Source of the DNA: Escherichia coli
Lineage (GTDB): Bacteria; Pseudomonadota; Gammaproteobacteria; Enterobacterales; Enterobacteriaceae
Assembly (NCBI RefSeq): GCF_003018255.1
Contig: NZ_CP027440.1
Length of the DNA: 64,000 nucleotides
Strand: one strand, 5' to 3'
The position numbers and the translations under genes are program-made. This document shows positions 43,129 to 43,206 of this stretch, piece by piece. Below the pieces are notes generated by a model that searched no databases, was not told the origin of the DNA, and worked only from the letters and a program-made list of their open reading frames with translations. Numbering within the stretch: position 1 is the stretch's first letter; each line of letters begins with the position of its first letter.

Positions 43129-43206
43129 ACCGGCAGGCATCTGACTTTCCGCGTGACTTTGTTAACGTCATTTACAGAAATTGACACATCAGATGCCTGC
43201 TTTACG

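Follow-up and report, generated by a model that had tools for sequence, protein, structure and literature searches.

In the window, as we call the whole 64-kb stretch of Escherichia coli DNA that was analysed, the minus strand carries mrdA (45421-47322), mrdB (44306-45418) and rlpA (43207-44295, with its TAG stop codon at 43207-43209), followed on the same strand by dacA (41856-43067). rlpA is the last gene of the rsfS-rlmH-mrdA-mrdB-rlpA row, and the spacer between rlpA and dacA is 139 bp long (43068-43206); in MG1655 it has 138 bp, with one T fewer in a T run. A 401-bp query of the rlpA/dacA locus was matched, at an identity of at least 95%, in 5424 of 5426 complete E. coli genomes. Elsewhere in the window, at about 39953-39960, approximately 403 bp of ybeF, which encodes a putative LysR-type regulator, are absent by comparison with MG1655 (L081 453-855), and after this loss just ORFs of 118-126 aa are left in the lipA-lipB interval.

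The rlpA-dacA spacer contains an inverted repeat formed by two 12-nt arms, 43133-43144 (GCAGGCATCTGA) and 43189-43200 (TCAGATGCCTGC), which are 100% complementary; within the 64-kb window the arm 12-mer is confined to these two places. A first-pass annotation of this DNA had described an exact 12-bp inverted repeat with 44 nt between the arms, and a repeat search gave the same sequence, arm length and spacing, with coordinates 1 nt lower than those it had assigned (43134-43145 and 43190-43201). With the corrected coordinates the rlpA-proximal arm still begins 6 nt past the rlpA stop, as had been proposed. The segment between the arms, which had been called AT-rich, deserves this name moderately, since direct counting gives 17 G+C out of 44 nt.

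Taken by itself the repeat proves little, because 0.46 perfect 12-bp inverted repeats with a loop of 3-100 nt are expected per dinucleotide-shuffled window, and one or more occur in 26% of the shuffles; in the real window there are four that are distinct. Two others are located at 18688-18723 (GGATGGTTGAAA, with a 12-nt loop) and at 38195-38312 (ATTGCGGCAGCG, with a 94-nt loop), and a palindrome with the look of a textbook bidirectional terminator, AAAAAACCCGCTT-CAAA-AAGCGGGTTTTTT, lies at 38693-38722, about 30 nt downstream of the stop of lipA (38753-39718, minus strand). What places the repeat of the spacer beyond chance is its fold energy, together with pairing that is kept by covariation across genera.

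The 84-nt RNA of the element folds with -32.4 kcal/mol, against -17.9 +/- 2.9 kcal/mol for shuffled sequences (z = -4.9, 0/200), and the 88-nt RNA that runs from the stop codon to the mapped 3' end described below folds with -33.3 kcal/mol (z = -5.0). For the plus strand RNA the energy was -25.7 kcal/mol (z = -4.8). For the rlpA-sense RNA the minimum-free-energy structure is a stem with 13 closing pairs, 12 of them Watson-Crick and one U·G. Its 5' arm is GCAGGCAUCUGA (43200 to 43189, minus strand) and its 3' arm is UCAGAUGCCUGC (43144 to 43133, minus strand). The enclosed 44-nt segment (43145-43188, minus strand) provides in E. coli the U·G 13th pair and two inner helices of 7 bp and 4 bp; a 7-nt one-sided bulge separates the 13-bp and the 7-bp helices, and the inner helices vary by species. 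No Rfam covariance model matched 43068-43209, even at E <= 10. By sensitive blastn the 78-nt element is single-copy, with a median of 1 place per genome and at most 2 in the same 5424 of 5426 E. coli genomes. It is 100% identical in nearly all of them, and within-species polymorphism is uninformative.

Conservation of the pairing was evaluated across species, in a set of 80 Enterobacterales loci with DacA in which the rlpA stop and the dacA start were located and the spacers extracted. The spacer measures 135-143 bp in 48 of 49 Enterobacteriaceae, the exception being a Pseudocitrobacter MAG with 147 bp (after correction of its dacA start). An alignment of 46 Enterobacteriaceae species (A1) was built with MAFFT using no structural information, and RNAalifold recovered the core helix on it. 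When the E. coli helix was projected on A1, 78.5% of the cells were paired, against 31-41% when the partners were slid by 1-3 columns, and changes on both sides of a pair were found in 46 cells, against 17 +/- 6.5 in shuffles (0/500). At pair 24/78, 21 species have U-A, 20 have C-G and 3 have U·G, which on a neighbour-joining tree of dacA corresponds to at least 7 independent switches between U-A and C-G.

The same result was obtained in an alignment-free manner. A 15-nt window was placed over the -35 region, its distance to the -10 being fixed, and its pairing with the upstream sequence of the same spacer was compared with shuffles. The pairing is significant at p < 0.05 in 47 of 49 Enterobacteriaceae spacers; in 31 of the 49 the value was at the floor p of 0.0033, the lowest reachable with 300 shuffles, and the pairing is significant in several Erwinia too. 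In a swap test, where the foreign 5' regions were taken from species whose 3' arm differs, the own 5' region paired 4.7 kcal/mol better with the own 3' arm than foreign ones did, and the own partner was the better one in 50 of 55 species. The inverted repeat is an evolutionarily maintained RNA stem-loop. What had been put forward as a long RNA stem that could form is now sustained by the minimum-free-energy structure, by compensatory or wobble-compatible substitutions in the 46 Enterobacteriaceae and by an RNA 3' end nearby.

The two arms do not evolve alike. Mean column identity is 0.87 in the 3' arm, where GATGCC is nearly invariant, against 0.70 in the 5' arm. Columns 20 and 21 of the 5' arm have undergone at least 8 and at least 10 changes, and their 3' partner bases have never changed: opposite the invariant G there is C or U, with one G exception, and opposite the invariant U there is A or G, with three U exceptions (A1). 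In the core helix G·U is found in 30 cells and A·C, the combination that would wobble in the antisense RNA, in just 10. The sense strand gives the better fold in 37 of 49 species, a modest preference, with a few lineages favouring the antisense. This substitution pattern fits selection on the rlpA-sense RNA and is at odds with a DNA cruciform or with paired half-sites for a protein. The covariation is cleanly one-sided, one arm being frozen by promoter function and the other tracking it, and it illustrates that an RNA structure can be detected, and its strand assigned, although half of the structure is invariant.

RNA 3' ends have been mapped by Term-seq in MG1655. On the minus strand a strong end is located at 664018 (LB, OD 0.4; read count 91306) and, in a second condition, at 664017 (read count 41794) (Adams et al. 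2021, PMC7815308), counts similar to the ones tabulated there for the cspE and ybeD ends; on the plus strand there is a weak end at 664101, with read counts of 1166-1788 (PMC7815308, supplementary file 1). Each end is given in the table with 50 nt of upstream and 10 nt of downstream sequence, as we confirmed on the row of the cspE terminator, and the MG1655 coordinates were mapped to the window through the locus L081. The steady-state 3' end of the rlpA-sense RNA falls at 43122-43123 on the minus strand (...GCCUGC-CGGUAGUGCA|U), 10-11 nt past the stem. The weak antisense end falls at 43206 on the plus strand (...GCCUGC-UUUACG), 6 nt past the same hairpin read on that strand and at the edge of rlpA. 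Both arms are upstream of the mapped sense 3' end and are therefore both within the rlpA transcript, the opposite of arms that never meet in one RNA, which the first-pass annotation had named as part of the outcome that would refute its proposal. If dacA is transcribed from the conserved promoter, its mRNA should contain neither arm.

In one condition this 3' end is listed as "upstream ORF -54 dacA", and 664017 appears in supplementary file 3, where the authors' filtering rule implies a start site at most 200 nt upstream (PMC7815308); the mapped 3' end could be that of a short RNA initiated within this distance. No Rho termination region is given at 6638xx-6641xx in supplementary file 2 of the same work, and a version in which Rho acts and trimming follows is thereby weakened. 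With regard to the plus strand, CFT073 "c0723", upstream of dacA and in the opposite direction, is in the list of an in vitro run-off study, and the palindromic CTATAG core of the dacA -10 could give a divergent -10 (TACTAT) on that strand. A 47-aa plus strand ORF across the spacer (43087-43230; CFT073 "c0723" type) was discarded as non-coding, since the alignment has indels of 1, 2 and 4-5 columns in it.

The 3' arm includes the predicted -35 of dacA, ATGCCT (43140 to 43135), and the extended -10, TGCTATAGT (TGcTATAGT; 43112-43120, minus strand), lies 17 bp downstream of this hexamer. TATAGT preceded by TG is invariant in 46 of 46 Enterobacteriaceae (A1), and of 79 Enterobacterales spacers 78 have a -10 match (TATGAT in two Pantoea, otherwise TATAGT) at a distance of 42-48 nt from the ATG of dacA. 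TATAGT and ATGCCT are the -10 and the -35 of the database-predicted promoter PdacA-3, and an 88-bp fragment that starts just past the 3' arm, and so is without both arms, was reported to drive GFP (PMC9338883), so that dacA promoter activity does not require the repeat. GATGCC(T/A)G is kept even in genera whose long-range stem is absent or marginal (Yersinia, Rahnella and Serratia), and its conservation is therefore a property of the promoter at the DNA level. The proposal that the repeat marks a dacA promoter operator region is thus right in one respect, as the dacA-proximal arm overlaps the predicted -35 and is conserved in sequence, and wrong in another: the arms are not paired protein half-sites, considering their 0.70 versus 0.87 identity, the changes that keep G·U pairs and their distance of 56 bp from centre to centre. 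The GATGCC(T/A)G of the 3' arm (window 43133-43144; loci L032-L047) resembles the reported BolA ChIP-seq core GCCAG, a weak motif.

The mapped sense 3' end falls in the promoter spacer, upstream of the -10. From the promoter geometry, dacA transcription would start at 43105-43106 (minus strand), where an A or C stands 6-7 nt past the -10 and seven T follow (43104 to 43098). Scans of the spacer with sigma-70 and terminator consensus sequences returned no site, there are no rlpA or dacA rows in the SMRT-Cappable-seq, Cappable-seq and ROSE supplements, and a search of literature and data found no experimental record of the dacA start. The predicted leader (43068-43106, minus strand) has the A/C and then a conserved run of T6-7, as well as a nearly invariant block, CACGGATGTCGT; it shows no Shine-Dalgarno-like sequence within about 12 nt of the ATG and no significant fold (z = -0.2). 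In one Enterobacterales MAG (L058 2650-3003) the rlpA-dacA spacer reaches 348 bp, and a GGATGCC...TTTGTTATA copy is split from the TATAGT box and the leader by an insertion of about 200 bp. The U7 is preceded by another hairpin (43128 to 43104), which was considered as an rlpA terminator and dropped: its fold is weak (-8.1 kcal/mol, z = -1.55), the invariant -10 box lies within it, it shows no covariation, no 3' end is listed in the U run and the mapped 3' end is inside its 5' half.

It was also possible to see a conserved dyad in the loop, TGTAAATGACGTTAACA (TGTAA-N7-T[A/C]ACA; 43160-43176, minus strand), centred about 62 bp upstream of the predicted dacA start. Its invariant columns across the 46 species of A1 are G35, T36, A38, T46, A48, C49 and A50, and it has a single match in the window against 0.17 expected. 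The dyad probably belongs to the dacA promoter region as a site in the DNA, and the RNA stem would not include it; it fits a T-N11-A (LysR-type) box. By eye, a CRP site was set aside for its spacing of N7 instead of N6, a CpxR site for the poor fit of the second half-site, and CGGTAGTGCATTTGC as a sigma-54 site for a GG that is not conserved.

Taking into account these results, we consider it likely that the stem is the 3'-end-defining, protective stem-loop of the rlpA operon mRNA. The inverted repeat would be transcribed into a long-range stem in the rlpA 3' untranslated region, which would set and shield the 3' end of the rsfS-rlmH-mrdA-mrdB-rlpA mRNA. Two routes to this end may be envisaged: RNase II or PNPase, both 3'-to-5' exonucleases, would trim read-through RNA back to the stem, or an endonuclease of the RNase E type would cut at GCA|UUU. 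As the sense tail is not U-rich, the end comes most likely from exonuclease trimming or from an endonuclease cut, and within the reading of a protective stem such trimming or processing is more likely than direct, non-canonical termination. After RNase II, about 10 nt of single-stranded tail would be expected. Read on the other strand, the hairpin would also stop or block the weak antisense transcript. The 3' arm is shared with the -35 region because the spacer has only 139 bp; its DNA would be fixed by promoter function, and the 5' arm would evolve to stay complementary.

Hafnia, Rahnella and Edwardsiella, which lack the long-range stem, have a compact GC-rich stem-loop directly after the rlpA stop, and Erwinia persicina has a similar short one that itself reaches the -35 window, because its spacer has only about 100 nt. 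These compact stem-loops speak for an equivalent function at the 3' end. Those of Rahnella and Hafnia, short and GC-rich, were missed by the same terminator consensus scan and are therefore terminator-like at most. If the stem protects the operon mRNA, it would mark the boundary between the mrd-rlpA and the dacA transcription units, the orphan Term-seq 3' end upstream of dacA would be explained as the end of the rlpA operon transcript, and edits in the spacer, for example in dacA promoter engineering, should spare the 5' arm to keep rlpA expression unchanged.

Direct release of the polymerase by the hairpin, which would make it an intrinsic and effectively bidirectional terminator for transcription from the rlpA side and for the antisense, is a possible explanation that we regard as unlikely. 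It would account for 3' ends just after the stem on both strands, among them the plus strand end 6 nt after the stem, in UUUACG, for the A-rich GUAAA before the stem and the UUU 11-13 nt after it on the sense strand, and for the short GC-rich stem-loop at the same place in taxa without the stem. The RNA 3' end of intrinsic terminators is usually 7-9 nt from the stem, however, and the sense end lies past this distance. An outer helix between the stop-codon region and the GCWUUU before the -10, which would bring the stem base to the UUU, was rejected as lineage-specific (p < 0.05 in 6 of 48 species; p = 0.42 in E. coli). Considering that the sense tail CGGUAGUG has no U tract, that 44 nt are enclosed and that the consensus scan of the spacer gave no terminator, direct termination is doubtful. 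A chance palindrome, or a functionless remnant of a dispersed repeat (REP, ERIC or MITE-like), is already contradicted by the comparative data and is scarcely conceivable: the 0.46 repeats expected per shuffled window would allow for it, but the element is single-copy (median of 1 place in 5424 of 5426 genomes), has passed through at least 7 independent compensatory switches and coincides with mapped 3' ends on both strands.

The remaining alternatives give the repeat a regulatory task. An operator in which the two arms serve as inverted DNA half-sites for a dacA regulator such as BolA, with the RNA stem as an incidental product, is very improbable. In its favour are the conserved sequence of the 3' arm and the position of this arm in the -35 region. 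BolA has been reported to bind the dacA promoter region, the ChIP-seq consensus of BolA is YYGCCAGH, and GCCTG/CAGGC in the E. coli arms becomes an exact GCCAG/CTGGC in several genera, including Cedecea and Buttiauxella. Against it, sequence conservation is lacking in the 5' arm, where nearly every substitution is compatible with RNA pairing, including the 30 G·U cells, which are mismatches in DNA, and the half-sites are 56 bp apart. The GATGCC motif is kept in taxa without a second copy, the BolA motif is so weak that 39.5% of all genes match it with one mismatch, and the fragment reported to drive GFP contains neither arm (PMC9338883). There is also little probability, though somewhat more, that the hairpin is part of an RNA with a regulatory or trans-acting task: a leader or attenuator controlling read-through into dacA, from rlpA or from an internal start site, or a stable small RNA of about 85-90 nt derived from the 3' untranslated region. 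The "upstream ORF -54 dacA" listing, with its implied start at most 200 nt upstream, and the high read count at the 3' end as tabulated (PMC7815308) agree with it, as do conserved bases in the loop; yet no Rfam family matches, a supplement of small RNAs predicted from RIL-seq has no entry for rlpA or dacA, the inner loop helices are not conserved and the conserved loop bases are those of the DNA-type dyad at about -62. To judge from the invariant promoter downstream of the hairpin, the dacA mRNA would normally start after it. In the same range of low probability we place a hairpin that is an active coupling device between mrdAB-rlpA and dacA, or a trans-acting RNA of about 85-90 nt working as regulator or protein sponge. 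Coupling is considered because the 3' arm is an RNA copy of the dacA -35 region and the loop carries the conserved upstream dyad; if it were true, conditions that alter the stem, including ribosome release at the rlpA stop, 6 nt upstream, or a start site inside rlpA, could set the read-through of polymerase into the dacA promoter or its occlusion.

The protective stem-loop, which we favour, belongs to a kind of element that is well known, and what is notable here is that one arm doubles as promoter DNA, with the one-sided covariation that results. A literature search gave no paper describing the rlpA-dacA stem, whose 3' end appears just as a row in a genome-wide table, and none linking rlpA with RNase III cleavage. 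By comparison with inverted-repeat operators, for which BolA is the candidate, the locus has one conserved arm in the -35 region with a likeness to the GCCAG core, whereas the other arm varies while RNA pairing holds, with 56 bp of spacing and tolerance of G·U; both half-sites of a paired operator would be conserved, and the identities here are 0.87 and 0.70. REP/BIME palindromes are alike in being intergenic and able to block exonucleases at mRNA 3' ends, but the rlpA-dacA repeat is single-copy, has no similarity elsewhere in the genome and, as we take it, does not follow the REP consensus. With intrinsic terminators, bidirectional ones included, the stem shares a hairpin at the end of an operon and 3' ends on both strands, and it occupies the place of the compact GC-rich stem-loop of related genomes. 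It differs from them in that a stem of 12-13 bp encloses 44 nt in place of a loop of 3-8 nt, in the lack of a U tract (the sense tail is CGGUAGUGCAUUU, and the plus strand has just UUUA), in its rejection by the scan and in the sense 3' end, 10-11 nt away instead of about 7-9 nt, the antisense distance of 6 nt being compatible. The closest class is that of precise 3' ends located just after stable stem-loops without U tracts and trimmed by PNPase and RNase II (Dar and Sorek 2018, PMC6061677). As in that class, the operon's last gene is followed by a stable stem-loop and, just past it, by a precise steady-state end, seen here in two conditions, and the tail is not U-rich; the class also takes in Rho-dependent mRNAs, and no Rho region is listed near this locus. 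The rlpA stem departs from the protective stem-loops described there in being long-range, with 44 nt enclosed, and not a compact hairpin, in its 3' tail of 10-11 nt and in having as one of its arms the promoter of the next gene.
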